Assembly (NCBI GenBank): GCA_964019425.1
Contig: OZ025790.1
Span: 1,426,001 to 1,490,000 of the forward strand
Length of the DNA: 64,000 nt
Source: Flectonema sp. DT1601
Taxonomy: Eukaryota
Direction of reading: 5' to 3'
Made by a program: the position numbers and the translations under genes. The notes beneath the pieces are model-generated. The model had not been told where the DNA came from. It did not search any database and worked only from the letters and a program-made list of their open reading frames with translations. Position 1 is the stretch's first letter; each line of letters begins with the position of its first letter. Of the stretch, positions 19,818-62,759 are shown in pieces.

Positions 19818-19885
19818 GGGATCACGACACCTGCCTCCTCGCGGCGGTCCCGGACGACTTCGATAGGGGTCGACAAGACGGTGTC
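19818..19885 (+). ncRNA. HDV-like self-cleaving ribozyme at the element 5' end
   Basis: P1 GGGATC/GGTCCC, P2 GACACC/GGTGTC, P3 GCC/GGC, L3 TCCTCGC, P1.1 CC/GG, P4 CGACTTC/GGGGTCG, J4/2 ACAAG with candidate catalytic C19874. The first G coincides with the TSD boundary. Confidence 0.85.
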
Positions 19886-20092
19886 AAAGACAAGAGATGC
19901 CAACACCATCAACACCAACTACCACATCCAGGGCATCCGTACCCTGGATGTTTTTTATCAAAAAAAGAACGGAACAAGCTAGCCCACGCCTTGAATGGCA
20001 ATGGTGGAACAAGAAAGAACAGCAGAGACCGTCGCCCCCGAGACGATACTCGCGACAGGGACGAAGACCGCCCAAACAAGGAAGAACGTCGG

Positions 20093-22804
20093 ATGGCGAA
20101 GCTCGAGAAAGAGAAACTCGACTCGCTCGACGAGATAGAGGAAGAGAGGCAACGGCTGGAGCAGCAGAAAACAGCCATGGAACAGCACCACCACCAGAAG
20201 GAAACCAACCTTCAAGGACAAGAAAAACAGTTGGAACAGCAACGCCAACACCAGCAACAAGAACTGCAAAGTCAGTACCACCAACAACAGCAGCAACTGC
20301 AAAGCCACCATCAGCTGAAGGAAACGGAAAGTCTCCAGAAGGAGCAAAACCTACAGGCTCAACTCAAAGAGCAACATCAGCACCAACAGAAGGAATTGGA
20401 GAAGCAATACCGCCGACGACAACAGCAACTGGAAAGCCAACAGCAGAAGAAGGACGCCGAGTCTGAACAGCAAACGCATCTGACTCGGTCACAACTACAG
20501 AAGGAAAAGGAATCCTTCCAGACGGAGAAGGAACGGCTCCACCTCCAGCTGGATCAGCAGCTAAAGAACGAGAAGGAGCACCTCCACCAACAACTGAACG
20601 CCGAGATAGGCAAACAGAAGCAGGGGCTCCAACTGAAGGAAGAGAAGCTCAAGGAGCAGATTGGACAGGAAAAAGTCCAACAACAACAAAAACTCCAACA
20701 GAAGGAAGACGAGATTCAACGGCGTGAAGAAGAGGTGAACCGAGGACAGCAGCAACTACACCAACAGCAGCAACAACTAGAGCAACAGCAACAGCAATCG
20801 CAACATCAGCAGCTGGAACTACAACAACAACGGCAACAACAACAACAACAGCATCAACAACTGGAACTGGAACAACAACAACTACAACAGCAACTGCAAC
20901 TGCAACAACATCGACAACCGCAACAACAACCGCAACAGCAACCCGTACACTACATGCAACATCAACCGTATGCAACGTACGACACCTACGCCCAGCAGCA
21001 GCAGTCTTCCCACTACGAAGGACTACAACAGGAACTGAAGCGCGAGAGAGAGGAGAAAAGCGAACTACGCGAGATGCTCCGAACTCTCCAACAACAACTG
21101 GACGGATTGAGAGAAGAACTCAAGGCCCAACATGCTGAGGCGAAGAGGCAGCAAGAAACGGCGGGACGGGAAGCGAGAGAGATGCAAGAACGTTTCTTGC
21201 TAGAACTGGAAGCGGAACGGGTCCAGATCAGAGGGCTCAACTCGCTGAGAGAAGAGGAAGAGGAACATCAGATGGACACCACCCCTGATCAGGAAGCAAA
21301 CACGGAAGCGAAGCAAACGCCACCGGTGAAGCTGCCCCAAGACGGTATGAGGGAGCTGGACGCCTCACGCAAGAAGCTGATGAAAGAAATCAATGAAGGG
21401 CAGGTAGCCGGACGATCGGCCATCCAAGAGCAGATGGTCCGAGAGGCCGGGAGACTGGCGCAGACTCAGAAGAGCTGGGAGAACGCAGCACGCAAGGAGC
21501 GATCCAGAGTGGATAACCTCTCGCTGGCACCGGAGTATTGGCCAGAGGGAATGGCAATCACGAAGGAGCAGTACGACGCCGGTACAAAGGGAGTACACCT
21601 CACCACCAGAGAGGAGGCAAGGAAGAGGATGTCGGGAACACCTCCGGGAGCCTGGGAAACGTTATCCCTGGTAACCCTGGAACCACCATCAGACACGGCG
21701 CAGAAAGTACAGGTAGTACTTAAGGAGACGACGAGCGACGGCGAGAAGAGAATTCTCAAGCAGCTCTGGATGACAACACTGGGAAGAGTGGTTGTACCAT
21801 CCGGAACAGACGTCGTGCGGACGGAAAGCACGAGGGAGATGGTTGTCCGAGTGGACAAAAAATGGTCCGGAGAGAAGAGATGGTCGGAAGTGAAGCGCTC
21901 CCCGATCAGGGCAACGGAAGAGTTGAGGAAGATGCCGGGGTATGTCGATACGTACAACCCGCGGATTGGAGACCAGAGCGTCACGGTGATGCTCAGGGTG
22001 AAGGTAGCCGAAGTGAAGAACTTCCTCCGAGAATCGGGGAAGGACGGCGTCTTCACCAAGGAAAAGGATCCGAGAGAGGAACGAGCAGTGAAGGCGGCGG
22101 TCATTTGGCTACCGAAGGACGAGACACTCGGAATCGCTCGAGACAAGGCTGTAGAAGTCGATGGAGGGCTGGGACTTGTGGTAAACGAACACGGACTCGG
22201 GCTTCGAGTGACCAGCTGGCAGGAAACGGCGGCGAGGGAGAAACTGCACCTGCCGGCTAAGCTACCGGAAACAAAGATCACGGGTATCCCGATCGGCACA
22301 ACCACCGACGAAGCGATCAAGTGGCTGATCACGAAGGAAGGCTGGGAAGTGAGGAAGACGAAGGAAGGCGTACGGAACGGCATGCGATGGATGGTCGTCC
22401 GCGGTCCGGTGAGAACGCAGGAAACCATCACGGTGGATGGCGTCCTGTGCATGGTGGAGGCTGGGAAACAGAAGGTGGAAGTCGACCCGAAACGGAAGGA
22501 GACCAAACGCCCGAATGCGACACCGACAAAACCGGAGAAAAGGCGTGACCCGACGGAGGGAACGGGAGGAAAGTGGTACACTCGATTGGAGTTCATCGAG
22601 TTTCATGGGAAGAAGAAGGGACAACGCCTATGGTTAGAAGCCAGCAACCCAACACCAACTACGACGGCACCTACGAAGGCAGCGACCGCAACGACAACAG
22701 CGAAAAAGGAGCCCAAGTCGACAAAAAAGAAGGAGAACAGCTCAGTGGACGAGAGATTGGACCGACTGGAACGTCTACTGATGGCGTTCATGGAACGGAA
22801 TTGA
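20093..22804 (+). CDS. Retrotransposon A1 ORF1 (poly-Q coiled coil plus conserved C-terminal domain); start uncertain
   Basis: First in-frame ATG inside the element is 20093, but the frame is open from 19818; Q/E-rich coiled coil; ends AAT-TGA. Confidence 0.75.
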   Translation: MAKLEKEKLDSLDEIEEERQRLEQQKTAMEQHHHQKETNLQGQEKQLEQQRQHQQQELQSQYHQQQQQLQSHHQLKETESLQKEQNLQAQLKEQHQHQQKELEKQYRRRQQQLESQQQKKDAESEQQTHLTRSQLQKEKESFQTEKERLHLQLDQQLKNEKEHLHQQLNAEIGKQKQGLQLKEEKLKEQIGQEKVQQQQKLQQKEDEIQRREEEVNRGQQQLHQQQQQLEQQQQQSQHQQLELQQQRQQQQQQHQQLELEQQQLQQQLQLQQHRQPQQQPQQQPVHYMQHQPYATYDTYAQQQQSSHYEGLQQELKREREEKSELREMLRTLQQQLDGLREELKAQHAEAKRQQETAGREAREMQERFLLELEAERVQIRGLNSLREEEEEHQMDTTPDQEANTEAKQTPPVKLPQDGMRELDASRKKLMKEINEGQVAGRSAIQEQMVREAGRLAQTQKSWENAARKERSRVDNLSLAPEYWPEGMAITKEQYDAGTKGVHLTTREEARKRMSGTPPGAWETLSLVTLEPPSDTAQKVQVVLKETTSDGEKRILKQLWMTTLGRVVVPSGTDVVRTESTREMVVRVDKKWSGEKRWSEVKRSPIRATEELRKMPGYVDTYNPRIGDQSVTVMLRVKVAEVKNFLRESGKDGVFTKEKDPREERAVKAAVIWLPKDETLGIARDKAVEVDGGLGLVVNEHGLGLRVTSWQETAAREKLHLPAKLPETKITGIPIGTTTDEAIKWLITKEGWEVRKTKEGVRNGMRWMVVRGPVRTQETITVDGVLCMVEAGKQKVEVDPKRKETKRPNATPTKPEKRRDPTEGTGGKWYTRLEFIEFHGKKKGQRLWLEASNPTPTTTAPTKAATATTTAKKEPKSTKKKENSSVDERLDRLERLLMAFMERN

Positions 22805-22888
22805 CCGGCGGAGGACGGAAGGAACTGGGCGGAGACACGGAGACGTCTCCTGCTACAAGCTGGCGACGTTGAGAGGAACCCCGGACCG
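22805..22888 (+). other. 2A-like StopGo peptide (LLLQAGDVERNPGP) directly after the in-frame ORF1 UGA
   Basis: Matches the D(V/I)ExNPGP consensus; in frame with both ORF1 and the APE domain; no ATG. Confidence 0.9.
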
Positions 22889-25800
22889 AGACCACGAATC
22901 GATGGGCTCACCGTGGGAACAATCAATGTCACCACACTAGAAGGAAAAATAGATGCCATCACAGATCTGAACCTAGATCTGATAGCTCTACAGGAAACTT
23001 CTCTGACGGGCCCACAGCAACGCCAGATGAAAAAACAGCTCGGTGAGAGAGGATGGGAAACGACGTTCGGATTAGAGTGCAAATTACTAACCGATGGGCA
23101 AAAGACGTGGACGGCGGCAGGAGGCGTGGCCATCTTGACGCGCACTGGTACACCGGTGAGAAGGATAAAACACGATCGGCTCGACAACACGGGACGATTC
23201 GTACACGCGGGAGTGTCGTACGGAAATGGCAAGGTACTGCACGTTTTCTCGTTCTACGGAGACGTACGTTCGGCGGTCTACACGGAAGAGTTGATTGCGG
23301 AGATGCTCGTGGAAGCAGCAGCTCTGGGTGATGTTCCCGTATTTATAGCGGGGGACTTCAACGTCGAAACAACGGAATCGCCGGCGCTTCTGTCGGCTTT
23401 CGCACACGGACTCTGGATAGATGCCGCCGTCTCGATGGGAAACATGACACCGACAAGCGAAGCGGGAAAAGGACTTCGTAGAATCGATGCTATTCTGATG
23501 AACCGCGGGGCGGCGACAGCAATCTCGAATGACACAACGATTCATGTGCATAAGAGTGAGCTGATCCCGACACACAAGCCGGTCATCATTAGAAAGCTCA
23601 ACATCTCACGCTACAACGAGAAGGCTCCTAGGCTGATAGTACCGAAACAGTTGGATACCTCCGAGACAACGGACCCGAGTGAGGGGAAGGCCGAAAGGCA
23701 ACTCCACTGGACGCGAGCTGTAGCGACGGAAGATCCTGACAAGATGCTGGAGGCGCTTGGAGAGATCATCGAAAGATACCTTCTGACGGGAAAGCTGGAG
23801 ATAAGTAACCCAGCCAAGTACAAGGGACGCGGGAAGAAGCGTGAGCCTGTGATGTGGACGAACGCGGCGAAACAAGACGGGAGAGGAGCGACGTGCAGGG
23901 AAACGCGAAGAAGACTGCAGAAGATACGTGTTCTGGAGGAAGTGATGAAAATCACAAAGCAACGCGATGGTCCGACGGTGCCGTCCCACGAAGTAATGAA
24001 ACTCTGGAAAAAATTACGAAAACTCGATCCGACGACGGGATCCGAAATACCACAGACGGAGGAGCTTCGGATACTACTACACAAGCGAGACAGGAGCAAG
24101 CGATAGAAAGCAAGAAGCTCCGAACTGAACGCATCCGCATGTGGAAACGGAATGTTGTCGACAATTGGAACGACGACCGCACGAAGGTTTTCCAGTGGAT
24201 CAGGAACGTCGAGCAATCGAAGACTGTTCTGATGGAAAAGGCAGATGGAAGCTGGACGGCCAACTGCTCCGAGATGGATGAGGCCATGCACGCGGCATGG
24301 GACCCCATACTCAAAAAGTACTTATCAGACCCGGAACCAGACTGGATGAAGTTCGAAGAACGGTACAGCAACTACATCGAGGAACACCCGATGCGATGCG
24401 AAGATATCACCGGGGAGGACGTTGCAAAAGCCCTCAGAAGAACTAGCTCGCGCAAAGCAGCTGGGGTAGACGGCTTCAGGATATCGGAGCTCAAGTCGCT
24501 ACCGGAGGACATGATTCAGATGATAGCGGAATTCTACAACATAGTGGAGAGAACACACTGGCCGGAAGCACTTCTCACGGCACTGGTGTCGGCCATACCC
24601 AAAGGGGCAGGGACGAAACCACTGGAGCAGAGACCCATTACGGTGACATCCGCACTTTACAGACTATGGGGCTGTATACGTATGGAAAAGGATGTAATGG
24701 AGTGGCAAGAGAAGTGGGCTCACGACGGGCAGTACGGCTACCGGAAGGGGAGATCTACGCTCGACCTCAGCTGGAAGATAGCACTAGACGTGGAACACGC
24801 AACTCTCTACGGAGAAGAGATTGCTGGAGTGACCACGGACTTCAGGAAGTGTTTCGACCTGATCCCGCACGACATCCTCCTGAAATTGGTGAAGGAATTG
24901 GGCCTCGGTGATGAGATCCTGAGAACTGTGACGGATGTCTACCGGCGACTCAGAAGGAGATTCAAGTTCCCGAGCGGCGTCGGAGAAGAATTTGCCACCA
25001 CCAACGGAATACTGCAAGGATGTCCGCTCAGCGTGGTGCTCTTCAATGCGCTGAGCTCGATACTCAGCAAAGCAATCGAGAGGGAAGCCGATGTGACGCC
25101 CGGATCGTATGCGGACGACCTGACGTTGTTTGGATCACGAACGAAGCTACAAGAAGGCGTAGAAGTCGTTGCGGAGTTCTGCACCCTGACCGGACAAGAA
25201 CTCGCACCTCAGAAGTGCAAGTGGTTCTCGAACAGAGACCAGGGCCAGACCAACATCACAATGGGGGACACAACACTGGACTTCGATGACAGTGTCGATA
25301 TCGTGGGATGCCACCTCAGTATGAAAGGAACCACCAAGCAGATTGGGAGGATCACGGAAGAAGTGCTCGATAGAGCGAGGCGAATCCGGTTACTTCCGCT
25401 CAGATATCAAGCGAAGGAACAGATAGCTGCAGCTAGTGTCATGCCCAAGGCGCTCTTCGGAACGGCACTGTACGATCCCGATGCGACGCGACTCGGACTG
25501 CTGAGAAGAGCAATGGCAACGGGGATTTTCCGCAAACTTGGAGGGAAAAGAACTAAGATGTCGCACACCATGGGCCTAACGCTACTCTGCAAGGGACATT
25601 GTGTGGATCCCGCGACGTACATTAGGTACAACAGACTCCTTGCACTCACCAGAATGCTACCGAAGCTAACTGAGAGGATACGCAGGGTATGGGAACACCT
25701 GCAAGAGCACACTGAAGCGACGAGAGGACCAGTCGGCCTCGCCCTGAGTACTCTGAAGGAACTTGGATGGGAATGGTCAACTTTCTCGGTCTTCGAAGGT

Positions 25801-27540
25801 CCGGGAGGGACGACCGAACACGGAAGGCTGGATGCGGGGCGCTGGCGGCACGATGTCAGAGAGGCGTGCAGACGTTTCACCTGGAACAAAACAATTGCGG
25901 AAACGAGACGGGTAAACCTGAGAGGTATTGAAGCGGGCATCGACCGGAAAGAGACCCTGAAGGTCCTGAAGGAAGGAAAGGGCGACCCCTACCTGCGCGG
26001 AGTAGTGAAGCACTGCCTCCTGGACAACGTGTACACTGGCTCGATGAAGGCGGGAAACAAGAACTGCGCGCACTGCGAGGAGGTTGACGACGTAGAGAGG
26101 ACGGAGACCCTCGAGCACGTGAACTGGGATTGCAGAGCTTATGACACAATCCGACAGGAATACCCGCAAGTGATGCTACAAGTTCGAAGCGATTGGCCCA
26201 ATTGCCTGAGGCTACTCGGCATCAAGCCCGACAATGTGGAACTGCCGGCGGGGCTCACCGGAGACCTACAACGAATGTTCGCACGGATCAGGCTCCGCAG
26301 GGACGACTACCAACAACTGGAGGAAAGACGGCTGACGGTTGTGGAATACGCTGGGAACAAGGAACCGGAAGTGGTTATGCGATACAACAACAAACTGGAA
26401 AAGTACATGCCAGTATACACCCAATGGCCCGAAGCCCTTGGATTGACCTTGTACTTGGCGCTTGCGAGCTACCTGAGGGAACTGAAGTGGCCTCGACAGC
26501 CAGACGGAGTCGGAGTCACCTTCCTGGAATTAGCGATCGACTTCGAAGCGTATGCGGGGGTTGACATACCGACCACAGTCCACGAAGGCCACGTAGCGAA
26601 GTGCACCAAAGACAGAGCCGCCGGGAAGAAAGCTGACGTCATGTGTGGACTGATGCTAAGATTGAACTTGGTTCACAAGCATTTAGAAGGCGAGGAACAA
26701 AGAACCTTTCCCGACTACTGCGTAGGAAGCAACAAAGCCTTACGTCCGCTAGGAGCCCCGGTACTGAAAGGTTTGAAGAAACGACCAGCTTTTCTGATGG
26801 GAGACGAAACAGTAGACACAATTCGGAGGACGGTCCAAGAGGCGAACGACGGAAAAGCTGACAAAATCAGATTCGGCTTCGAGACTGAGTGCAGGCACTC
26901 GAGCGAGAGGGAAGGGAGAGCGGAGAAATGGATAACCGCGGCACGACTTTTCCCATCAAAGGAAAAAGACGTACAGCTGAGGAGGGAGCTCTGCGAGCGA
27001 GGACCGACACGCCCGCCACCCGAGGTCGTCAAGAGACCGGGCATCGCGGAAGGACAAGGAACGATGAACTCGACGTGCTACGGACACTTCAAGAAAAAAT
27101 GCAATAGTTGTCGACGGGCCGGAAACACCATCTACCAGTGCTGCCACAACCATCACACTCTGGGGGATGAAGATGGACAAATACCGATATGGGACTTTTG
27201 CAGCAAGCACAAGCTTACTCCATGTGCAGTCTGCATAGTTATCGGCAGAGGATCTGAGCAATGTTGCAGAAACAGCCACCACCGATGCCGTCACCACGAG
27301 ATGGCTCCCTGCAACGACTGCAAGCGGAATCCGGATCCGGAACAACGGACTGCCACGAAATGCTGCAACAAAAAGCATCACGGGCCAATTATAAGGACGT
27401 TGACGAGGAGGGCGAAGCAGCCGACGAAGCATGATATGCAAACCAGCACATCTCTTCTAAAATTAGGTTTCACCAAACAAATGAAACCGAAAGCAGAGGA
27501 AACCCCGGAAAGGGAACCACAGGACAAGGGGTTAACTTAG
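22805..27540 (+). CDS. Retrotransposon A1 ORF2 (APE, RT, CCHC, Cys/His repeats) with one frameshift near 24080
   Basis: APE: TINVTTL, ALQET, AGDFN, RIDAIL, THKPV. RT: QRPITV, DFRKCFD, GILQGCPLS, YADD. CCHC: CAHC...EHVNWDC. The APE ORF stops at 24106 and RT continues in another frame. Confidence 0.9.
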
Positions 27541-28739
27541 GTTGGCCGAACCAGTGCCTCGTCATCTCACCGTGCTAGCAAGCCTGAATGACAGCACTCA
27601 AAATGGTACATATATCGTTGTTCACGAATCACTTCTCTTGACCTTTCAAGTCTTAGTGATGTAAAGGAAATTGGTAGAAAACCCCTCGTTAGCTGCAGCT
27701 CCCTAAAATCTGTTCAGCTGCCTAAAAATAATGGCGCTATCTTTGAGAGGGTTATGAAATTTGAAAATTTAAATGTAAAGTGTTGAACCGATTCTTGGTT
27801 GTCATTTTTTCTTCTTCTTTTTTTTTTTTTTTTTTTACTTTTTTTTTAAAGTATCACAAAAGAGCTTTAACAACGACAGATTGCTCTGAAGTTGCTCCAG
27901 AAACACCTTCCAGTTGATCATCTTGAATTCCATCCTAAATAGATGAACACTCTATTAAGGGATTTGGTTATTTGAGTGTTCGGACATCATAGTTTTTAGA
28001 GAGGAGCTTCATGTGTGACCGACACAACCTGAAACTTAAAAGGTAACCGGTAGGATGTGTTGTAGCATTTGTGATGAGAATATTCTACACAAAACAACTT
28101 TTAATCTCACATTCCGATATAGTCAAAGAGAATGTGATCATGATGTTTGTTTTGTGATTATTTATATGTTCCCGCATGTGGTGCCTCAGTTTTTCAAGAT
28201 CAATGCAAAAGAACTTATCACTCGCAGCTTAGTCTTGCGAAATATGCTACAAGTTTGCTACGAACGGAGAAATATTTCATTTTGATTATTTTTTGAAAAA
28301 TAATTTTCGAAAATAGTTTTTCTAATATTTATTTTATTCAAAGTGTGTAAAGAAGTACTAAGTCTTTTTTAATTTTCCTTTAATATTTATTTGCTTTTGA
28401 AGTGTGAGAGAATACTATTTTAAGCTGCAACAGACTACAGGGCATGGTAGTACGTGTCCCCCGAACCCCATATTCGACAGCACATATGGAATTTTTATTG
28501 ATACCAATTGCAACGAGGTTGGCCGAACCCTATTCTTGTTTTAGCCAGTTTCAAGTTGCTTTCAATTTAATATTAGTATCAAGTTACTCCCCACTGCTAA
28601 TAATGGGGGAGCCTCAGTCTGATTGTTTAGGGAGGACTCCTTAGCCTCCCAAGGATTTTGTTATGTTTACTGAAAGAGAAATTGATGCGAATAATTGCAA
28701 TGCAGGAAGGGTGGGGAGAAAGTACATAACACTTAAAGT

Positions 28740-29300: not shown

Positions 29301-29797
29301 TCTCATCATTTTTAACCAGGGGGGGGAAAAAAAAACCTTTTCTCGTTTGTTTTTTTTTTAAATAACGGGACTCAGATAAAAAAAAAAAAAAAAAAAAAAA
29401 CTAACTAACCTTTTTTTTTTAATTTTTTTATCCTAATCTGAAAAATTAGTTCTGAACTTTAACGGGGATGTCAACACGATGTCGCTATGCTGTAATTGAT
29501 TGTTCTAGTTGGTATTGTTAGTCTTTCTTTTTTTTTTTGAAAGAAAGAAAGAGAGAGAGAGAGAGAGAAGGAAACATTATTTTTTTTCAAAAAAAAAGAA
29601 AGAATAAAAACTCAGGTACTTGTTATTTTAATCTGTAGTATTGTACTTACTGTTGTTCTTAGGTCACTAATTACAAAACAATGATGGTTTTTTTTTTTTT
29701 TTTAATTCCTTGTCTTGTTCGAAAAATAACTACGAGACGCAACATTAACTTCATTCATACTATCAGTTATTTATTATATTTATTAAAAAAAATAAAA

Positions 29798-51754: not shown

Positions 51755-51944
51755 ATACCTTCTCGGCCTTTTGGCTAAGATCAAGTGTAGTATCTGTTCT
51801 TATCAGCTTAATATCTGATATGACACCTTGTGTGTCAACGATATTATAGTAATTTCTTGTTGGGGTGTCGGGTAGCTTGGGGCAACTCAGGTCCGGCACA
51901 AGTGTTGCCCTGGAGCTGCACCACATCCAGGAGTGGCACACCCA
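51755..51944 (+). ncRNA. U2: U2 snRNA
   Basis: ATACCTTCTCGGCCTTTTGGCTAAGATCAAGTGTAGTATCTGTTCTTATCAG with canonical GTAGTA branch-pairing sequence; Sm-like AATTTCTTG; 3' hairpins; T-run. Confidence 0.95.
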
Positions 51945-52279
51945 TTTTTAATTAAAGTAGAAGACAAAGTCTCTTTTGAAACAAACCATAAAAAGTAGAG
52001 GAAATATTTTTATCTTGGGAAACGAAACCCGAGTTTAAAAAAGAATTGTCTTTAACTTCAACTATACAGAAATAATGATATAACACTGTGATTTTTTGTT
52101 TGTGCACGAAACCGTGAACCGACTTAAACTGATAAAGCTAAAGAAGTGCTGCCAACATTCTTTTTCGTTCTTACAATCTTGTTAAGCAAAAAAAAATCCC
52201 CAAATCCACGAAAGTATTTCCCTTCACTTGAAAATTATTCTTTAGCCCAAAAAATGAATTGGGTGAACTGGGAGAAAAC

Positions 52280-52353
52280 TACCCCATGTGAGACTCGAAC
52301 TCACAACCTTTGGATTAGAAGTCCAACGCGCTATCCAATTGCGCCAATGGGGC
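52280..52353 (-). tRNA. tRNA-Arg(TCT)
   Basis: Reverse complement GCCCCATTGGCGCAATTGGATAGCGCGTTGGACTTCTAATCCAAAGGTTGTGAGTTCGAGTCTCACATGGGGTA folds as a cloverleaf with anticodon arm TTGGA-CTTCTAA-TCCAA. Confidence 0.95.
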
Positions 52354-52369
52354 TCTGTTTACCAACGAT

Positions 52370-52372
<3 letters not shown>

Positions 52373-52403
<31 letters not shown>

Positions 52404-53503
52404 GTTACACTCGTCTGTGCTACCAAACTCTTTGTTTATGTTCTTTTCACTTCTATGTTTTGTCTTTCTTTTATACTTTCTTTTTGACTTAAGTCTGACA
52501 AATTGGAAAACACGGGAAACATAGGTAGGCTCCGCCTGAGGACGTAAGAAGAGCGGCAACGGAAAAAATAAATGGTCACGCGTCCTTGAGATTGGACACA
52601 CGAAGCTAATTCGGTTACCATTCCTACCATCGATAAGGAAAACAAAGAATCGAGCATATAACTAGAGCGGTGGTCAAAGACCACTTGAACAGCCCGAAGG
52701 CCTGCCCTCAAGAGAAATTAATAAGGAGAATAGGAGAAGAAGGAGAAAGGAGTATTGGAAGGGACACTGAGACAACACCGAAGGTGATGTGCAGTTACCC
52801 AACCAGGAGATGATTGATAATGATGAACATACTAAAAATAATAACAAATTGATATTGGCGACTGCATGTCACCTACTTTACTTCCAAAGTCTAAGGTTAG
52901 ATGTTTGTTCCATCCACCTTATGATCAACGCGAGTGATGGAAGCCACGCCAAAGTGAAGAGAGCTTCAAGGTTAGGAATTTCGTTGGCAATAATAAGTTC
53001 TCGATCGCGATCCCACTTGCCGGTCAGTGTTGAGAAGCCCAGGATTTTGAACCTGGCAGAGTCGAGTTTGGGAGATTGACATCCCTGCAGCAGGTGAACC
53101 TGTGAGGACGGTTCGCCACAAAATGGGCAGTCGATTTTCTTGCGCCAGTTCTGAATTAGCGGGTGACATCCTGTCCGGAAGTTCGCTATCCGTATCTCGT
53201 CGGCTCTTTCCATCCCAGGAGGGTATTTAACGGAACGGCCTCCGATGAGGTGTTTGTAGCAGGTGTAACCACTCACGTTAAGCAGATCCTTTTTGATGCA
53301 GCGCTTAACATGTGATGATCGCGAGAAGTAAGTGCCTTTGACTAGCACAGGTCGGATGTTCTTGTTGTGCGCTGCTTCCTTTGCAAGCGCGTCAACTTCA
53401 TCGTGAAACTCGATTCCAATGTGCGAGGGGATGAATTGCAAATGCACTTTCATTTCACACATGCGCAGGTATTCTAGTATCTTGAGGGACTCAGTATTCC
53501 TCT
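52373..53503 (-). mobile_element. 5'-truncated LINE copy (element B1): end of RNase H, CCHC, 3' UTR, poly(A)
   Basis: Near-identical to 59612-60714; T-run at ~52372-52402; flanked by 9-bp duplication AACGATTCT at 52364-52372 and 53504-53512. Confidence 0.9.
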
Positions 53504-53554
53504 AACGATTCTAAAGCTACAGTTTCTGTACTTTATTGTTTCTGTACTTTATTG
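53504..53554 (+). other. Retroposed spliced-leader exon followed by a second partial SL relic
   Basis: AACGATTCTAAAGCTACAGTTTCTGTACTTTATTG then TTTCTGTACTTTATTG; the 3' half matches the conserved kinetoplastid/diplonemid SL exon; no GT donor follows. Confidence 0.9.
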
Positions 53555-53577: not shown

Positions 53578-54942
53578 ATGTCCGGAACACAAGAATCGAT
53601 GGTCGTGCAGCAACAAGAGCAAGCACAGCAATCAATGATGCAACAGCAGCAAGCACAGCAATTAATGGCACAGCAACAGCAGGCACAACACTTAATGATG
53701 CAACAACAGCAGCCGCAACAGCCAACACAAAGCCAGCCGGTACAACAACAAGCGCAGAACAATTCCAACAATTGCTTTTTACATGGCAACTGGACGCTTG
53801 AGACTTTAAGTCAGTCGCAAACTCACCTTCCCAACAATGTCCCACCAATCTCCCCCTTTTCGTTTATGAGCTCACCAATGATAGCGTTTAAACAGTATCT
53901 CAGAATAACAAATCTGTATTTTAAAACAATAAACATTTTAAGTTTAAAAGAAATGCACTTCACAGTTTCAAAAGACAATGTTGTAAACGTTTTTTCTTGT
54001 TTATTGGAAATCAAAAAAGAATGTGCAGCTGATTTCTTAGAAATATCCGGCCAACACGGCATTTTCTTTTCCGAACACAAAAGCACTCAACACCTCTCCT
54101 CCTACTACACAATTGTGTGGACCCCTGACACACCTTACACCCAGCTTAAAAAGATAGCAATCGATCTCAATAAAGACCCAAAAAACAAAGGAGCCCTCGG
54201 GCTCACAATGTACCAAGGAAGAAGCCTTGGGATACGAATTAAAAAAGAATCAGAAACAAACTTTCGTTCAAATTTTGGAGTAAAATGTCCGACTTATTTC
54301 GAGATAAGCGGCATAAGCAAAGAGAACGCAACGTCATTTGACGTTGAATTTTTTTTTGATTTAATGAAAAAAAAAATTAAGTACTGTTATAAAAAAAAAA
54401 GGGAAGAGTCACATGTTGTGAGCTCGTACGAGAATCTGCAGTCTTGCGGATCAGTAATCGTTAAAAAAATAACTCAACCCTCAAAAGATGAAAGAAGAAT
54501 TGAAAAGAACTCAATAGAAACGAAAACAGACCAAACTGAAAAAAAAGATATTAACGAAAAAGGAAAAGGAAAAGGAAAAGGGAAAGGGAAAAAAGGAAAG
54601 AAAGGAACTAAGGGAGAGAGCGGTAAAGGAAAAAAAACTGTTTTGTCATCACCGTCAACCTCAGTAACCCCGTCAATAGAACAAACGGACATTTTAAACC
54701 AGCTAAAATTATTGTTAGATGCACAAACAAAGCATCTAACAACAAAGATCATTGGCACTTTTCTAGCCGATGATCCGAAAAAGCAAGCAGAAGCTTGGGA
54801 TGCGGAAATAAACCCGCAAGAAAAAGAAGGTTTTCTACAAGGATCGATGGACGATGACATCGATCTTGTGAAACAGAAGCTGGACAAAGAAAACGATGGT
54901 GATGACAACACAAAAAGAAAAAAAGAAGAACCTCCGAATTGA
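53578..54942 (+). CDS. Retrotransposon A2 ORF1 (poly-Q N-terminus, conserved central domain, KG repeats)
   Basis: 454-aa ORF starting 24 nt after the SL relics; motif-level similarity to A1 ORF1; ends AAT-TGA. Confidence 0.85.
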   Translation: MSGTQESMVVQQQEQAQQSMMQQQQAQQLMAQQQQAQHLMMQQQQPQQPTQSQPVQQQAQNNSNNCFLHGNWTLETLSQSQTHLPNNVPPISPFSFMSSPMIAFKQYLRITNLYFKTINILSLKEMHFTVSKDNVVNVFSCLLEIKKECAADFLEISGQHGIFFSEHKSTQHLSSYYTIVWTPDTPYTQLKKIAIDLNKDPKNKGALGLTMYQGRSLGIRIKKESETNFRSNFGVKCPTYFEISGISKENATSFDVEFFFDLMKKKIKYCYKKKREESHVVSSYENLQSCGSVIVKKITQPSKDERRIEKNSIETKTDQTEKKDINEKGKGKGKGKGKKGKKGTKGESGKGKKTVLSSPSTSVTPSIEQTDILNQLKLLLDAQTKHLTTKIIGTFLADDPKKQAEAWDAEINPQEKEGFLQGSMDDDIDLVKQKLDKENDGDDNTKRKKEEPPN

Positions 54943-57900
54943 CTGTTTCCTTATAATTTATATCTTTTTTATTTCTCGAACCTTCTTTTGTGTGGAGACA
55001 TCCACCCGAACCCCGGTCCACAAAAAAAGCAAAAAAACAGTGAGCTGAGAATTGTATCTTTTATTGTTTGTGGTCTCAAGTCGAAATCCGACGAAATAAC
55101 TTTTTTTTTACAAAATATAAAACCTGACCTATTCATGGTTCAGGAAACATTGTTAAAGGATAACGACGAAACCATTAATTTTAATGGGTACAAGTGTCTC
55201 AGAAGAGACCGGAGAATTCCGGTAAAAAAAAACGCACCCGTCAGAGGTGGTGGATTGGCAATTTTTTACAAAAACAGCCTAAGCGTGACAGCATTCGCTG
55301 TTGCACAACACAGCCAAGACTGCACTGAAGTCCAGGGCATTTTTGTGTCAAATTCAAAACAAACTGTAAGGGTATACAACGTGTACAGACCACCGGTAAG
55401 CCAATCAACCTCTGATAGGTCCCCCTCTTTTGATATGAATAGTATTTTTCTTTTTAATAAAAATGATAAAGTAGTTATCGCGGGGGATCTTAACGCAAGG
55501 CATCCACTCTGGGACCCGAGAGACGAGTCAAACACAAATGGCCATGAAGTCTCGACTTTTCTAAACAATAACCAGTTTGAATGCTGCAACGTTAAGGAAA
55601 TCCCCACAAGACCAAAATCAAACACTTCTCCTGATGTTGTTCTCCAAAAAAACTGTGATATTGGCAACTGGACGACGCTCGAATCTCTATCAAGCGATCA
55701 TGTACCAATGTATTTTTCTCTTTCTTTTTTTTCGGATTCGATAAACAGAGCGAACGGTGCAACGGTTTTTTCTTATAATTGGAACAGGGCACTGTGGCCA
55801 AACTACAGCTCCCACCTCGAAAGGGTGGCGAAGCGACTTGAAAAGATTCAAGATAACCAGAAATTATCAATGGAATTCATAAGAGAATTAAAAAATGCGT
55901 TACGGATCTTTGTACCAAGGATTTATTTGAAAGGAAAGTCACCAAAGAAGTGGTGGAACACGACGGTTGCATCTAAGTTTCATGAGTTCAACGAGTCACA
56001 TTGTGACCAACGGGATGATCTTACAGATCTGTCGCAACAGGGAAAGTCAATTTTTACATCTTTAAAAAAAGAACTCAAAAAAACAGTCGTTGATGCCAAG
56101 AATCAACAGTTTAAAAAAAGCCTTAAAAAAGACAAGTCTATTATTGAAGCTTTTGAAGACATAAGAGGCCTTGATGGAAGATCAAGACTTAAAGAAATTC
56201 GAGAAATCACCTGTGGTGATAAACTTGTTACAGATGATGTGGAAAAAGCATCAATTTTCAATAATCAATTTTTACAACGTGTTGGTAACATCAAAGAAAA
56301 AACAAAGACAAAGAAAATAGAAACAGACCCTTCTGATTTTACACCATTTACACAACATGAACTTAGAATCCAATTGAGAGGAATGGCTCTGGAAAAGAAT
56401 TCACCAGATGGCGTTCAAGGTATTCTTCTTAACCATTTGGGACCTAGAATGCTAAACATTTTACTTAAGATTTTTAACAATTCGTGGAAACATTCTGTTG
56501 TCCCGAGTGATTGGAAAGACACACACTGGATCCCTGTTTTAAAAAAAGGAAAACCCCCAAACCTCCCCTCTTCATATAGAATGATCTCTCTCACCCCTTT
56601 TATTGCGAAATTGATGGAAAGAATGGTGAAGGAACGTCTTACGTATTTTATGCAATCACCGAATGAAAAGAAAACTGACGGTATTGGTTTCAACCAAACT
56701 TCTTATCGGAAAACGCGTTCTTGCCGGGAAAACATCCTATATGTTACGGACAGACTTAGATTTCTTAAACACCAAAAAAAGTCAGCGGCCCTTGTTCTTC
56801 TTGATATCGAAAAAGCTTTTGATAGTGTGAACCATGATCTTCTCCTTCAAAGGATGGTAGATCTTGGAATACCAAAACATTTTATAGCCTGGATTCAGGC
56901 CTTTCTTAAAAAACGAAGAGCAGCGGTTGTTGTTAATAATGAAAAAGGTTCTTACCACAATGTTTATTCTGGCGTTCCACAAGGAACAGTTTTGTCGGCT
57001 CTACTTTTTACTCTGTATATTGAAAAAGTCGCAGAAAGACTAGATATTACGGTTGCTAAGTATGCGGATGATATTGCTTTTGTAGTTGATGATGAAGGGA
57101 AAGGTTTTACTTATCATTTGGCAAAAACGAAATATTTCTTTAATGAGATTGAAAAGGATCTAAACGAATTAAAATTAAAAGTAAGTTATGAGCCTGACAA
57201 AACAAAACTTGTGTATTATCCCTACTCCCCAAATTCCCCACTACAAACACCTTTCACTTTTACTTCAAATTTAACAAAAAATATTGTTCCATGTGTTGAT
57301 AGCGCCAAGCTTCTTGGGGTGATCCTTGATAACAAGCTCGATTGGAAACAGCATATCTCGTACATTTGTAGAAGAGTTAATCTTCGCTTAAGGTATCTGA
57401 AGCTTGTCGCATCAAAAGCATGGGGACAGTGTACTGCAACTTTGCGTGAGGTGTATGATTTGTATATTCGACCTGTCATAACAAACTCGTGTGAAGCTTT
57501 TTATCCTGAAGTTAGGTATAAAAAGATTCACATGGACAGGCTTCTCTCTTTACACCTTAGGGGTGCGTGCTATGTCTTAGGTGCCTTACCACCAACAAGG
57601 GAAACAAGAGATAAGATCTTTTTTGAGGCACAACAACAAAGTATCAACACCCATTTGAGACTTGAAACTGGTAGATGGTTCGCCAAAATGGCGCGAATCA
57701 CGTCCCCTTTATTAAATGTCTTTATTCCACCTGAAAGAATATCCTCAACACCCATTGATTCTTTTACTCGTTTAGGAATGAATGTTCTGAAAGAACACAA
57801 CCTTCTATCACTCAGTTTTGAGAAATATCCCATTTACGTTCATCCTCCATGGAGTTTTTCAAATGATTTCAATGTTTTTAAACCAGAAATGCATGTTAGA

Positions 57901-58887
57901 AAAAAAAAAGACAAAAAGAAAAATAAAAAAGCCTGTGAAGCTGTTCTTAATGAAATAAGGAAAGATTATGAACCAGTCTTAGAGGTATATACCGATGGTG
58001 CCGTTGTTGAAGAACGCGGTGCTGCGGGTGTGTACATCATAGACAGCGAAGGAAATGAATTTCTCACAAACAAAAGTGAAGCAGGAATAATCTGCACCTC
58101 TTTTAGGGCTGAAATGATGGCGATCAAAAACGCTTTTGTTTTACTTTTTAAGGAATTTAAACCGCCGGAAAATGCGTCAGTTTTATTTGTGTCAGACTCC
58201 TCCAGTGCCTTGATGGAACTGGAAAAAGGGGGAACAAAACAGAAAACGAGACTAGGAAGCCGCATCTGGCAGTTTATTGAATTTTTCAACAATAAATTCA
58301 AAACAAAGTTTATTTTCCAGCATGTCTTTTCTCACTGTGGTATTGTCGGAAACGAAGAAGCAGACAAACTAGCCCAAAACATTTCATTAAAAAAAGATGA
58401 AGAAACCCTTTTAAAACAAAAAAAAGTTCCCATAGACTACAGCACCCATGTAGCTAAACTAAAACACAGAATAAAAGAAAAATTTGACCCCCGTCCTTTC
58501 CCATCTGAAACTGAAAGAGCGGAAGAAATTCTGATTTCACAACTCAGAATTGGCGACTGTAAACAAACACAAGGGAAATGTCCTAGGTGCAGAGAAAAAG
58601 ACTCTGTAGAGCACCTGTTAGCAAAATGCTCAAAGTACAGAAAAGAGAGGAGGGTGTATCTCCAGAAAGACTCTCTAACACAAGAAGAGTTAAAGGATTG
58701 TCTTTCCACTGTACAAGGACTAGAGAATGTTTTTCTTTTTATGTCATCTGCAAGAAGATATGTATTTCCAGAAAAAGAAAAGAAAAAAGAAAATTTGAGT
58801 CAGGAAACAAAGAAAGAAAATGAAGAAAACGTTATCCTTCAACCCACACTTTTCAATACTGTGATTCAAAACTCACAACTGACTTGA
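54943..58887 (+). CDS. Retrotransposon A2 ORF2: 2A-like peptide, APE, RT, RNase H, CCHC (in frame with ORF1, no ATG before 2A)
   Basis: LLLCGDIHPNPGP; APE MVQET, YRPP, AGDLNARH, SSDHVP; RT LDIEKAFDSV, GVPQGTVLS, YADD; RNase H YTDGA, FRAEM, VSDS, HCGIVGNEEAD; CPRC...EHLLAKC. Confidence 0.92.
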   Translation: MFPYNLYLFYFSNLLLCGDIHPNPGPQKKQKNSELRIVSFIVCGLKSKSDEITFFLQNIKPDLFMVQETLLKDNDETINFNGYKCLRRDRRIPVKKNAPVRGGGLAIFYKNSLSVTAFAVAQHSQDCTEVQGIFVSNSKQTVRVYNVYRPPVSQSTSDRSPSFDMNSIFLFNKNDKVVIAGDLNARHPLWDPRDESNTNGHEVSTFLNNNQFECCNVKEIPTRPKSNTSPDVVLQKNCDIGNWTTLESLSSDHVPMYFSLSFFSDSINRANGATVFSYNWNRALWPNYSSHLERVAKRLEKIQDNQKLSMEFIRELKNALRIFVPRIYLKGKSPKKWWNTTVASKFHEFNESHCDQRDDLTDLSQQGKSIFTSLKKELKKTVVDAKNQQFKKSLKKDKSIIEAFEDIRGLDGRSRLKEIREITCGDKLVTDDVEKASIFNNQFLQRVGNIKEKTKTKKIETDPSDFTPFTQHELRIQLRGMALEKNSPDGVQGILLNHLGPRMLNILLKIFNNSWKHSVVPSDWKDTHWIPVLKKGKPPNLPSSYRMISLTPFIAKLMERMVKERLTYFMQSPNEKKTDGIGFNQTSYRKTRSCRENILYVTDRLRFLKHQKKSAALVLLDIEKAFDSVNHDLLLQRMVDLGIPKHFIAWIQAFLKKRRAAVVVNNEKGSYHNVYSGVPQGTVLSALLFTLYIEKVAERLDITVAKYADDIAFVVDDEGKGFTYHLAKTKYFFNEIEKDLNELKLKVSYEPDKTKLVYYPYSPNSPLQTPFTFTSNLTKNIVPCVDSAKLLGVILDNKLDWKQHISYICRRVNLRLRYLKLVASKAWGQCTATLREVYDLYIRPVITNSCEAFYPEVRYKKIHMDRLLSLHLRGACYVLGALPPTRETRDKIFFEAQQQSINTHLRLETGRWFAKMARITSPLLNVFIPPERISSTPIDSFTRLGMNVLKEHNLLSLSFEKYPIYVHPPWSFSNDFNVFKPEMHVRKKKDKKKNKKACEAVLNEIRKDYEPVLEVYTDGAVVEERGAAGVYIIDSEGNEFLTNKSEAGIICTSFRAEMMAIKNAFVLLFKEFKPPENASVLFVSDSSSALMELEKGGTKQKTRLGSRIWQFIEFFNNKFKTKFIFQHVFSHCGIVGNEEADKLAQNISLKKDEETLLKQKKVPIDYSTHVAKLKHRIKEKFDPRPFPSETERAEEILISQLRIGDCKQTQGKCPRCREKDSVEHLLAKCSKYRKERRVYLQKDSLTQEELKDCLSTVQGLENVFLFMSSARRYVFPEKEKKKENLSQETKKENEENVILQPTLFNTVIQNSQLT

Positions 58888-59367: not shown

Positions 59368-59408
<41 letters not shown>

Positions 59409-59611
59409 TTTTATTTATTTTATTTATTTAGTCACATCCCCCCTGTCTTTCTACTTTGTTTTTATTCTTTCTGAGCATACTCGCTCTTCTTATTTTTTAA
59501 CTAAGTAAATAAGCAACAACGAGTGCAACTGTTGTGAGTCCGTTGGAGGACTTCCCCGGATAGGAAGCTCACGACACTGTAAGTACAAAGCGAATATTTA
59601 TTTTTTATTTC

Positions 59612-62600
59612 TTTTTTTTTTTTTGGTTACACTCGTCTGTGCTACCAAACTCTCTGTTTTTGTTCTTTTCACTTCTATGTTTTGTCTTTCTTTTTGACTT
59701 AAGTCTGACAAATTGGAAAACACGGGAAACATAGGTAGGCTCCGCCTGAGGACGTAAGAAGAGCGGCAACGGAAAAATAAGTGGTCACGCGTCCTTGAAA
59801 TTGGACACATGAAGCTAATTCGGTTACCATTCCTACCATCGATAAGGAAAAAACAAAGAATCGAGCATATAACTAGAGCGGTGGTCAAAGACCACTTGAA
59901 CAGCCCGAAGGCCTGCCCTCAAGAGAAATTTATAAGGAGAATAGGAGAAGAAGGAGACAGGAGTGTTGGAAGAGACACTGCGACAACACCGAAGGTGGTG
60001 TGCAGTTACCCAACCAGGAGATGATTGATAATGATGAAAATACTAAAAATAATAACAAATTGATATTGGCGACTACATGTCACCTACTTTACTTCCAAAG
60101 TCTAAGGTTAGATGTTTGTTCCATCCACCTTATGATCAACGCGAGTGATGGAAGCCACGCCAAAGTGAAGAGAGCTTCAAGGTTAGGAATTTCGTTGGCA
60201 ATAATAAGTTCTCGATCGCGATCCCACTTGCCGGTCAGTGTTGAGAAGCCCAGGATTTTGAACCTGGCAGAGTCGAGTTTGGGAGATTGACATCCCTGCA
60301 GCAGGTGAACCTGTGAGGACGGTTCGCCACAAAATGGGCAGTCGATTTTCTTGCGCCAGTTCTGAATTAGCGGGTGACATCCTGTCCGGAAGTTCGCTAT
60401 CCGTATCTCGTCGGCTCTTTCCATCCCAGGAGGGTATTTAACGGAACGGCCTCCGATGAGGTGTTTGTAGCAGGTGTTACCACTCACGTTAAGCAGATCC
60501 TTTTTGATGCAGCGCTTAACATGTGATGATCGCGAGAAGTAAGTGCCTTTGACTAGCACAGGTCGGATGTTCTTGTTGTGCGCTGCTTCCTTTGCAAGCG
60601 CGTCAACTTCATCGTGAAACTCGATTCCAATGTGTGAGGGGATGAATTGCAAATGCACTTTCATTTCACACATGCGCAGGTATTCTAGTATCTTGAGGGA
60701 CTCAGTATTCCTCTGTCTGCACCTTCCACCCAGCAGTTCATCCAGAAGGGATTTTGAGTCCGTGAATAGCCTTACAGATCTCATTGAAGGATCTTTGCTA
60801 AACACTGTTCTCAGATGTCTAGCCGCGTTCTTCAGAGCATGTTGTTCAGCCCTGTAGCTGCAGTCAGCTTGATAAAGCCTAGACGCGTAAGCAGATCGAA
60901 GGCCGCTACGTGACTTGGCAATATGAGCCGCACCGGCCGCGCCGGAAGCAGAGTAGGAGCCATCGCAGTTGATTACCATGTCGACAGGAGGTAACGTTCC
61001 AATGTACGACATGAATTTTTCTTTGTCCACCGCAGGGTTCGCGGACTTCGGAAATCCGCAGCCGTTGCTAATCCTAAGGTTTGTCGGAGATACCCAGGGT
61101 TCCATCGAGTCAGGCTGCACAAGGCACTGGCTTTCACGCTGGCTGTCAATGCCAGGAAGGAGGCCAGCCCAGTAGCTTTGGGTTGAGGCGAGTCTGTTGG
61201 TACTAGGTATCCAAGTCATGGCTTTATACCTGTAGTACGCTATCTTGGTTTGCTTTTCAATCTGACGTTTAAAAGGAAGCATGTCCGCTTCCCACAGTAG
61301 AAGTTCTCTCGGTGTGCACCTGCTGCATCCAGTAACCAGCCTGGCAACCTTCCTCAGTTCGAAATCAATACTATCAACGCTGTTGCTTATCAACCAACCA
61401 AAGCTATCGAGCGCATAAGAGATTCTCGCAGTTACGTAAAGGTTCTTGACCATATTTAGCGTTTTGTAGTCAAGATCATACGGTTGAAGGCATTGAAGCA
61501 GAGATATTCCCTTTTTCAGTTCTTCATGAATCTTAGCCACCTGTTTGTGGAAAGTGAGTCTGTCGTCGATGTGAACTCCGAGGTATTTCACTGAGTCCAC
61601 GATTGGCAACAGAAATGCGGTTTTAAATCTGGCTTTCACCACCATCACGTTGTCTTCGAGAACAATATTCCGCAACATCACGTTGTCAAGTTCGTCTTGC
61701 GTTTTGATCGGAGTTCCATCAACCTCGAGAATAGTTTCGCCGCTTTGAAGCATGGGTCTAGAAGAGTTTAAGTTGATACTCTTTTCAATGTCACTATAGT
61801 CCATTTTGATAACGTTTTCCACAACAGATCTGGAAAATAGTAATTCGCGATTGCAGGTGTCGTTGAGAATCGTATCCTTCGTACGGACTTTCATCTTAAG
61901 AGCACAGGTCTTTGAGACCGACAGGGCCATGTCGTTGTCAGAACACCATTGATCCACTTTATCAAGTATTATTTGAGCATTTGAAAGAGCTTCTTCCATG
62001 TTATGTCCAGATACTACACATGCTGTATCATCCGCATACAGAGCAGACGTCGTTGTTTCTTTCTCCAGTTCCAAAATCTTGCAGAGGTCATCAACGTAGA
62101 TAAGATAGAGAAGAGGACCCAGGATCGATCCCTGTGGAACCCCCTTAGCCAGAGTACGGAATTCGCTAAGATAACCATTCGCTTCAACTCTAACCTTCCT
62201 GTTTGTAAGAAAGTCTGTGATCCATCTGATAATAACATTCGGAACACCCATCTTTACCAATTTTAATAAAAGTATCTTATGGTTGATCCTGTCAAACGCA
62301 GCAGTAAAATCAAACGATAAGAACACCGATCTCTTTCTCTTCATGTGCATCCTTACGACGGCATCTACCAAAACGGTGATCTGTTCGCAGGTATTTCTCC
62401 CCCTTCTGAAACCAGCCTGTAGTGGGCTGAGTGACGAATGTTTAGTGAGCCAGTGCATGAGTCGGTCATACACGAGCCTCTCCGCAAGTTTCCCAACAAC
62501 CGATGTGAGCGTAATGGGTCTGAAACTCTTCAGTTCATTCCGAGGTTTTCCAGCCTTGAACATAGGCTTGATTAAACCTTGTTTCCACTGGTACGGTACT

Positions 62601-62730
62601 TTTGAAGTCTTCCAGGAAGTGTTAATAATTCTCAAGAGGTATTCCACTGTTGCCGGAGTGAAGTTTTTGATCATCTCATTGTGAACTCCATCAGGTCCTG
62701 CAGCCTTGCGGGTCTTCAGTAAGTCTTCAG
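59612..62730 (-). mobile_element. 5'-truncated LINE copy (element B2): RT, RNase H, CCHC, 3' UTR, poly(A)
   Basis: ORF 60089-62674 extends upstream to KAAGPDGV; RT DFTAAFD, GVPQGSILGP, YVDD/YADD, KYLGV; RNase H NCDGS, FTDSKS, FIPSHIG; CPFC...VHLLQGC; imperfect T-rich flanking duplication. Confidence 0.9.
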
Positions 62731-62759
62731 TTATTTTTTTATTTTTTTTTTTTTATACT

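Follow-up and report, generated by a model that had tools for sequence, protein, structure and literature searches.

A UGA-C stop codon and an in-frame 2A-like peptide between ORF1 and ORF2 of two diplonemid LINEs: a candidate for tandem recoding

How is the second open reading frame (ORF) of a retrotransposon translated when it begins immediately after a stop codon and offers no AUG? This question is raised by A2, a long interspersed nuclear element (LINE) in a 64,000-nucleotide stretch of Flectonema sp. DT1601 DNA (contig OZ025790.1, positions 1,426,001 to 1,490,000; the whole stretch is called the window, and positions below are its own). An earlier note on this DNA had described the A2 junction as AAT-TGA-C followed by a methionine-free linker of 26 codons, in one frame with ORF1 and with the APE endonuclease domain that begins ORF2, and carrying a 2A-like peptide. 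The sequence bears this out, and a second LINE in the window, A1, has the same layout. The answer that we favor, to which we give an even chance, is that readthrough of UGA-C rations the ORF2 protein (ORF2p) of A2 and that peptide-bond skipping at the 2A (StopGo) sets it free, and that A1 and a third family behave alike.

The junction and its conservation

The A2 stop region (54934-54945) reads CCG AAT TGA CTG. The CTG is the first leucine codon of the linker and opens an ORF2 frame that continues for 1314 codons without interruption, in which the earliest AUG is codon 65 counted from the start of the linker, already within the APE domain. The A1 stop region reads CGG AAT TGA CCG and is followed by a linker at 22805-22888; here the first AUG after the stop is codon 75, also within APE, and no near-cognate start is found before codon 6. 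The two elements share the heptamer AATTGAC and the frame, as the note had claimed, but their distances to NPGP, 26 and 28 codons, are similar rather than equal. Outside the heptamer, A1 and A2 show no further likeness in their DNA around the stop, agreeing at 7 of the 30 bases before it and at 8 of the 40 after it. The heptamer itself occurs seven times in the window, both strands counted. A 2A-coding pattern is present twice in the 64 kb, both times at the A1 and A2 junctions, and in none of 100 shuffles.

The contrast in composition that the note had drawn between the two elements is also correct: A2 is AT-rich (37.5% GC) and has RNase H, whereas A1 is GC-rich (54%) and has, by Pfam, APE and reverse transcriptase (RT) but no RNase H. 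The A1 copy in the window bears a frameshift between APE and RT (about 23944-24085); other members of its family are intact. Homology between the two ORF1s is evident at 23% identity (E 3e-7). When the 317 ORFs of the window were searched with a profile built from 44 distant ORF1 homologues, the ORF1s of A1 and A2 were the only matches, that of A2 having an E of 8e-19; the profile is not fully independent, because the homologues were gathered with one that included A2. A structural model of the A1 ORF1 domain (predicted local distance difference test score 93.8) had an RRM as its best match, at a middling Z of 7.5 and with a root-mean-square deviation of 2.4 across 71 aligned residues, and ACT domains scored equally well; a Foldseek search with the model returned nothing at E 0.001, and a protein atlas search with the domain returned no usable match. 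The two RTs are 24% identical and are separated at 100/99 support in a tree that holds 18 of 21 sequences (three had too little RT), carries a long-branch warning, and was built without named Ingi sequences. In an ORF1 tree of 50 rows, A2 falls outside the clade of A1 and Flectonema. Given the separation of the RTs, the shared layout would be either ancient and retained or twice evolved. Relatives of the A2 N terminus were not found in viral contigs, nor were relatives of the A1 APE in prokaryote genomes.

Copies were compared through protein clusters from long ENA contigs; these are gene calls, so that the identity of the stop is not directly visible in them. All four A2-family ORF1 proteins (six contigs) end at the same residue, as do both A1-family ORF1s, all six in-frame proteins of P0002/P0003, and 7 of the 10 P0014-family proteins, the other three ending earlier. 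Fifteen of the 22 members of the A1 ORF2 cluster were listed; eight of these cover the N terminus, and all eight start inside APE, as expected since no AUG lies upstream. On these calls the stop belongs to the family as a whole rather than being a mutation of one copy. Conservation across copies and families, on which the note had made its proposal depend, is found for the stop position in the four A2-family ORF1s and in three families.

An alternative is that the UGA arose by nonsense mutation and became fixed in families that are non-autonomous, whose copies would make no ORF2. Many broken copies do exist among the long-contig gene calls, and an L2-like family from metagenomes has in-frame TGAs at positions where relatives with an open frame have a sense codon. 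Against this, the A2 ORF2 is open throughout, at least four full-length ORF2 calls occur among the 15 listed for A1, and the stop lies at the same place in three families. We give this explanation the least credence of any considered here.

The heptamer fared less well than the stop. The note had presented AATTGAC as a conserved signal, but across the six closest families ORF1 ends in N, K, N, Q, N, and E. AAT or AAG precedes the UGA in five of six junctions, known from DNA or inferred; AAT as a necessary signal was rejected, since K, Q, and E also occur. A weak search for longer, fused relatives of the A2 ORF1 found none among 7986 candidates.

Junction states in related families

Two frameshifted gene calls indicate how other families join their ORFs. 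P0005, from the P0002 family, crosses the junction, and its shifted frame fits the A1 junction at 27 of 36 positions (next best, 12). The P0002 junction derived from it allows UGA as the sole possible stop, with C or U at +4, places a 2A in frame, makes methionine impossible, and gives lysine as the last ORF1 residue. We infer that the P0002 family is a third case of a UGA-pyrimidine stop followed by an in-frame, methionine-free 2A. The second call, P0018, belongs to the P0014 family. It fits the end of ORF1 at 25 of 25 positions, with UGA as the stop and C as the +4 base, and by eye another of its frames matches the methionine-started ORF2 P0181. On this reading an AUG would overlap the UGA, with ORF2 in the -1 frame; NPGP is absent. 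This P0014/P0181 sister family therefore appears to use an AUG-UGA overlap without a 2A.

The overlap gives substance to the main rival of readthrough, namely AUG-less termination-reinitiation, in which ribosomes would restart at or just after the stop (on CUG in A2, on a non-cognate codon in A1) and the 2A would trim a ragged N terminus or lower ORF2p further. Reinitiation is described for SART1 and proposed for L1, and Ingi and L1Tc carry a 2A although they have no ORF1 to release. The L1 ORF2 is reportedly translated independently of an AUG. Moreover, CUG is the first linker codon of A2, and two metagenome loci described below, L185 and L217, keep a methionine at linker codon 11. However, an AUG is absent from both A1 and the P0002 family, and in A1 the conserved stretch of the linker is preceded by no near-cognate codon either. 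Nor does reinitiation call for a UGA-C stop or for ORF2 to be in frame 0, whereas UGA-pyrimidine and frame 0 are found together in each of the three families without an AUG. We judge reinitiation less likely than readthrough, while taking it more seriously than any other alternative.

In still other relatives the two ORFs are not separated at all. P0064 and P0079 hold ORF1, APE, and RT in a single frame with no stop, and P0079 has an OTU domain and LSGG directly before APE. The named A1 homologues come from Flectonema neradi. The Flectonema ORF1 P0004 ends in asparagine, and two ORF2 calls have a weak Josephin-like domain (E 0.012 in P0179) and RGGG. After the RGGG, and inside ORF2, P0179 carries a cassette resembling the A1 linker, with 19 of 28 residues identical and the match beginning at codon 2; P0180 is without the cassette.

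Metagenome loci add further states. A clear match to the ORF1 domain was present in 2 of 104. In L130 the frame stays open for 480 codons, its 2A included. In the decayed locus L185 the upstream frame ends AAG-UGA-C, 36 codons before the 2A core; in its homologue L217 it ends AAU-UGA-A, 39 codons before the core, with the ORF open at the edge of the locus. Neither stop is the TGAC by which the loci had been selected, and both fall outside the count of close stops given below (the L217 stop lies 47 codons upstream).

OTU- or Josephin-like domains followed by Gly-Gly sites recur at the ORF1/ORF2 boundary in P0079, P0102, P0067, P0179, P0180, L130, and L185, and P0102 ends immediately after its Gly-Gly site. 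This arrangement suggests self-cleavage of a deubiquitinase-like kind. Separately, the A1-clade ORF2 relatives P0182, P0183, P0184, P0185, and P0186 have a GEAx(N/V/H)PGP variant directly before APE.

How far does the layout extend? The 104 metagenome loci were chosen for a TGAC before a 2A; this TGAC was in frame in 14 cases, fewer than the 60 and 33 in the other two frames, so that in-frame cases are under-represented. Across these loci, none of the 22 in-frame stops within 45 codons of a 2A ends an ORF of at least 100 codons; in a viral control, a stop was found within 45 codons at 2 of 134 informative 2A sites. The in-frame TGAs of L152, L174, and L216 were set aside, as two of them align with a serine codon of an open relative and all were selected by pattern. 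The layout thus looks tied to this ORF1 family rather than to 2A-bearing LINEs at large, and it was not seen in animal-type LINEs among the metagenome loci. In the same collection, six loci that by eye are long terminal repeat (LTR) retrotransposons (L123, L131, L171, L180, L181, and L191) have one or more 2A motifs in one long frame, situated between gag-like, protease, RNase H, and integrase-like parts.

Readthrough and peptide-bond skipping

The UGA is followed by C in both A1 and A2. UGA-C is described as the leakiest context in most systems, and conflicting effects are reported for U at -1 (PMC4615788). The note had likened UGA-CUG to the UGA-CUA readthrough motif; the resemblance stands for UGA-C and fails for the exact triplet and for downstream structure. 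It had also proposed comparing the +4 base with that of host genes. Among 12 hand-picked host ORFs, six end in UGA and none in UGA-C, as against UGA-C in A1 and A2 and UGA-pyrimidine in the P0002 family. Taking UGA at 0.5 and a +4 C at the window background of 0.18, the rough chance of two independent UGA-C stops is 0.008, an estimate made after the fact. UGA as a sense codon of the host was considered and rejected: the PIG-V gene ends at UGA, at position 443 of 443 of the Pfam profile.

Would the 2A-like peptide skip? A1 has the strict class A motif (G/H)D(V/I)ExNPGP, whereas A2 departs from it with H in place of E. Numbered as in P2A, A2 has His at 14, Leu at 7, 8, and 9, and Asn at 6, whereas A1 has both leucines (6 and 7). 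In a published scan of P2A, E14H is the sole tolerated change at D12, E14, or N16, with a score of 0.85; the change is not tolerated in F2A, and P2A Leu6 and Leu7 are intolerant to change (bioRxiv 10.64898/2026.09.24.754024). In our own collection of 2A cores, H for E recurs in 15 of 108 from metagenome loci, most of which are retroelements, and in none of 139 viral cores. The note's concern that DIHPNPGP might alter skipping is thereby reduced, but A2 does have asparagine where P2A has the important Leu6. On this basis peptide-bond skipping in A2 is plausible.

If skipping failed, readthrough of A2 would yield an ORF1p-ORF2p fusion and the 2A would be weak or vestigial. The departures from P2A at Glu14 and Leu6 are compatible with this outcome, as are the fused ORF1-ORF2 relatives that exist without a 2A; and of the 580 2As from retroelements in the screen cited above, no more than 43 showed high activity (bioRxiv 10.64898/2026.09.24.754024). 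The tolerance of E14H in P2A, the recurrence of histidine in metagenome but not viral cores, and the canonical A1 peptide with both leucines all argue otherwise, and we consider a fusion product improbable.

A further possibility is that the A2 ORF2 has its own mRNA, produced by trans-splicing at an AG within the linker (54996-54997) and translated from the AUG at codon 65. That AG tops the A2 ranking by upstream pyrimidine content, and A2 RNA is likely trans-spliced at its 5' end. In addition, the first APE motif of this copy (55054-55074) has Ile where Asn is the usual residue. But the product would lack the first APE strand and the 2A, though the 2A is kept; the A1 linker is purine-rich, with no comparable site; and the pyrimidines are accounted for by the codons for Phe, Leu, and Tyr that an AT-rich element uses. 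We regard separate production of an ORF2 mRNA as very improbable.

Under readthrough followed by StopGo, a minority of ribosomes would pass the UGA-C of A2. The linker of 26-28 residues would then fill the exit tunnel, and the ribosome would skip the Gly-Pro bond, releasing an extended ORF1p and beginning a free ORF2p at the proline. Since the majority of ribosomes would stop, one mRNA would give much ORF1p and little ORF2p with no second initiation, and A1 and the P0002 family would use the same mode. The layout, the frame, the absence of an AUG, the common position of the stop, and the alternative junction states of relatives are matters of observation; readthrough, skipping, and the ORF1p:ORF2p ratio we infer from sequence. 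Readthrough is favored for several reasons. Conservation of the A1 linker begins at codon 2, where no start codon is available, and in Flectonema the cassette sits inside ORF2. The three AUG-less families all keep frame 0 and UGA-pyrimidine, while the family with its own AUG has no 2A. The relatives P0064, P0079, and L130 run from ORF1 into ORF2 free of stops. The stop position is a family trait. Finally, the layout recurs in two LINEs whose RTs are far apart.

Several observations weigh against readthrough. The exact CUA, CGG, or CARYYA motif is absent after the UGA of both A1 (CCG) and A2 (CUG), and no stimulatory RNA structure was detected 3' of the stops, where the first 118 and 121 bases gave z values of -0.20 and 0.00. 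Such a structure is present in many type II UGA readthrough cases. The host comparison is small, about one UGA-C being expected among six UGA stops. The AUG-overlap family also has UGA-C, so that this context in the A1 clade may be inherited rather than selected for leakiness, and the same family suggests that ribosomes of this lineage can reinitiate once they have translated a long ORF1. CUG stands directly after the A2 stop, both Flectonema ORF2 calls begin with methionine, L185 and L217 have their methionine at linker codon 11, and the L217 stop is UGA-A. A2 has no leucine equivalent to P2A Leu6. An N/H-PGP motif was found in none of 65 ORF1 homologues, chosen from 150 listed by the position of their profile match, and no intact ORF1-2A-ORF2 protein was found. 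As to shared origin versus convergence, forcing A2 together with the A1 and Flectonema ORF1s was not rejected (approximately unbiased test, p = 0.238).

Taken more broadly, and with a confidence just short of even, we propose that in diplonemid LINEs of two RT clades tandem recoding, in the form of UGA-C readthrough and StopGo within 30 codons, replaces initiation at ORF2. In this protist LINE lineage the joint between ORF1 and ORF2 would then be switchable. Besides tandem recoding, it could take the form of an AUG-UGA overlap or of a polyprotein without a stop, cleaved either through a 2A or by a protease of OTU/Josephin type. If true, these would be the first LINEs shown to use readthrough and would provide a natural readthrough-plus-2A cassette, as well as a first handle on the leakiness of diplonemid stop codons. 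The junction spans fewer than 90 bases, and nature provides controls in the sister families, one with an AUG overlap and no 2A and others that lack the stop; small reporters can therefore test the proposal directly.

Surroundings of the elements and known systems

The features of both elements are collected in Table 1. A2 is a full-length LINE, and its spliced leader, together with the Flectonema homologues of A1, points to a host that is likely a diplonemid. The start of A2 is a spliced-leader-like sequence, interrupted by an inserted copy of another LINE, A3, that is flanked by an 8-bp duplication (52364-52371 and 53504-53511). We take the euglenozoan leader used for comparison to be that of Diplonema. 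A2 is likely to derive from a trans-spliced mRNA with ORF1 first, and the second, relict leader likely stems from an earlier round of trans-splicing and retroposition; together, the leaders at 52361-53554 suggest at least two such rounds. The comparison leader is listed in PMC3795323. A clear target duplication around A2 was looked for and not found. U2 small nuclear RNA and tRNA-Arg(TCT) genes lie at 51755-52353, and the A2 leader starts 7 bases from the 5' end of the tRNA gene, head to head; targeted insertion upstream of the tRNA is possible.

Table 1. Positions of A1 and A2 features in the window
Feature	Position	Strand	Remarks
A1, full length	19818..27612	+	within a ubiquitin-like/leucine-rich repeat (LRR) gene; 22-bp target duplication
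A1 junction	22802..22888	+	UGA-C, 28-codon Met-free linker, canonical GDVERNPGP
5' piece of spliced-leader-like sequence	52361..52371	+	A2 start; interrupted by inserted LINE fragment
A3 copy inside leader	52372..53503	-	RNase H LINE, 5'-truncated; 97% identity to 59597-60714 over 1131 bp
Remainder of spliced leader	53504..53538	+	33/35 bases equal 3' part of euglenozoan leader, by eye
Second, partial (relict) leader copy	53539..53554	+	second leader match; 0 in 100 shuffles
A2 ORF1, 454 aa	53578..54942	+	Gln-rich start, domain common to A1 ORF1, charged tail
ORF1 stop, UGA-C	54940..54943	+	context reported leakiest; family-wide end residue
Linker with 2A-like GDIHPNPGP	54943..55020	+	26 codons, no Met, in frame with ORF1 and ORF2; predicted skip between Gly and last Pro (55018-55020)
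AG, splice-acceptor-like	54996..54997	+	ranked first in A2; 76% pyrimidines over 38 bases upstream
APE endonuclease	55054..55710	+	Pfam PF03372, PF14529
Reverse transcriptase	56542..57309	+	Pfam PF00078, E 1e-34
RNase H	57979..58380	+	Pfam PF00075, E 7e-11
CCHC-like motif after RNase H	about 58579-58629	+	by eye
Poly(A) run	59368..59404	+	likely A2 3' end

A1 lies in frame inside its ubiquitin-like/LRR gene (18716-19817 and 27613-27790). In another A1 copy and in the Flectonema relative there is likewise a fusion to an LRR gene, at a comparable point in the repeats (the set P0007, P0004, P0013, P0014, P0162, P0163), and the P0014 family shows in-frame fusion to papain-type genes. Gene-targeted insertion, with the start codon borrowed from the host gene, is possible. 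A hepatitis delta virus ribozyme model gives a weak match at 19816-19903 (18 bits, E 2.8, threshold 50) that begins exactly at the A1 5' end; A1 RNA may be freed by self-cleavage. Elsewhere in the window are a longer A3 copy with its 5' part missing (59597-62752, minus strand), the RNase H end of a fourth LINE, likewise missing its 5' part (62685-63803, plus strand), a mucin-like protein with long Pro-Thr-Ala-Ile repeats (839-5569), and a gene pair 98% identical (29663-33274), presumably related to saccharopine dehydrogenase.

A2 and A1 both belong with the APE-type non-LTR retrotransposons, since each ORF2 has APE and a non-LTR RT. The junction is real and family-wide, and it is a new combination of known parts. 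No LINE with readthrough followed by a 2A was found in the literature, in a search that left most subscription papers, Repbase, and bioRxiv supplements outside; the available texts of PMC5972666 and PMC8310308 show no LINE readthrough, and rigorous identification of Diplonema transposable elements is described as still to come (PMC10161547).

The APE-RT-RNase H layout is that of Ingi and L1Tc, and A2 shares it with the Ingi clade, including a 2A before APE; unlike Ingi, A2 has an ORF1 of 454 aa. A 2A directly before APE is known in L1Tc, Ingi, CR1, L2, Crack, and Rex1 (Odon 2013, PMC3708506; Luke 2013, PMC3894237). There, 2A is associated with the loss of ORF1, three exceptions being named, and ORF2 initiation is called an open question (PMC3708506, PMC3894237). 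As in those elements, whose 2A is proposed to keep ORF2p low, the 2A-like motif here abuts APE; unlike them, A1 and A2 have a full ORF1, a stop abutting the in-frame 2A, and no AUG. Thus, whereas the published view has 2A replacing ORF1 as the brake on ORF2p, here both are present and are joined through one stop codon.

With SART1 stop-start and L1 reinitiation the elements would share a single bicistronic mRNA and a low ORF2p, and the P0014/P0181 family appears to have an AUG-UGA overlap; unlike SART1 and L1, however, A1, A2, and the P0002 family have neither an AUG near the stop nor a spacer, but they do have a 2A. A 2A between ORF1p and ORF2p domains is reported in one arachnid (Cordylochernes), together with Josephin/OTU-fused ORF2p, in a study whose main text does not mention Diplonema (bioRxiv 10.64898/2026.06.17.732966). 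The likeness lies in what marks the boundary between ORF1 and ORF2, either a 2A or a protease resembling a deubiquitinase, both of which are seen among P0079, P0179, and L130; the difference is that the Cordylochernes-type cases are single predicted proteins, with no stop before the 2A mentioned in the available text.

Gag-pol readthrough occurs in some LTR elements. Type II UGA readthrough, as in RNA viruses and animal genes, resembles the A1 and A2 junctions in its UGA with C at +4, its structural protein upstream, and its in-frame enzyme ORF downstream. The junctions differ from it in having CUG or CCG rather than CUA or CGG after the stop, in that no stimulatory structure was found, and in the predicted release of the enzyme through a 2A instead of a protease.

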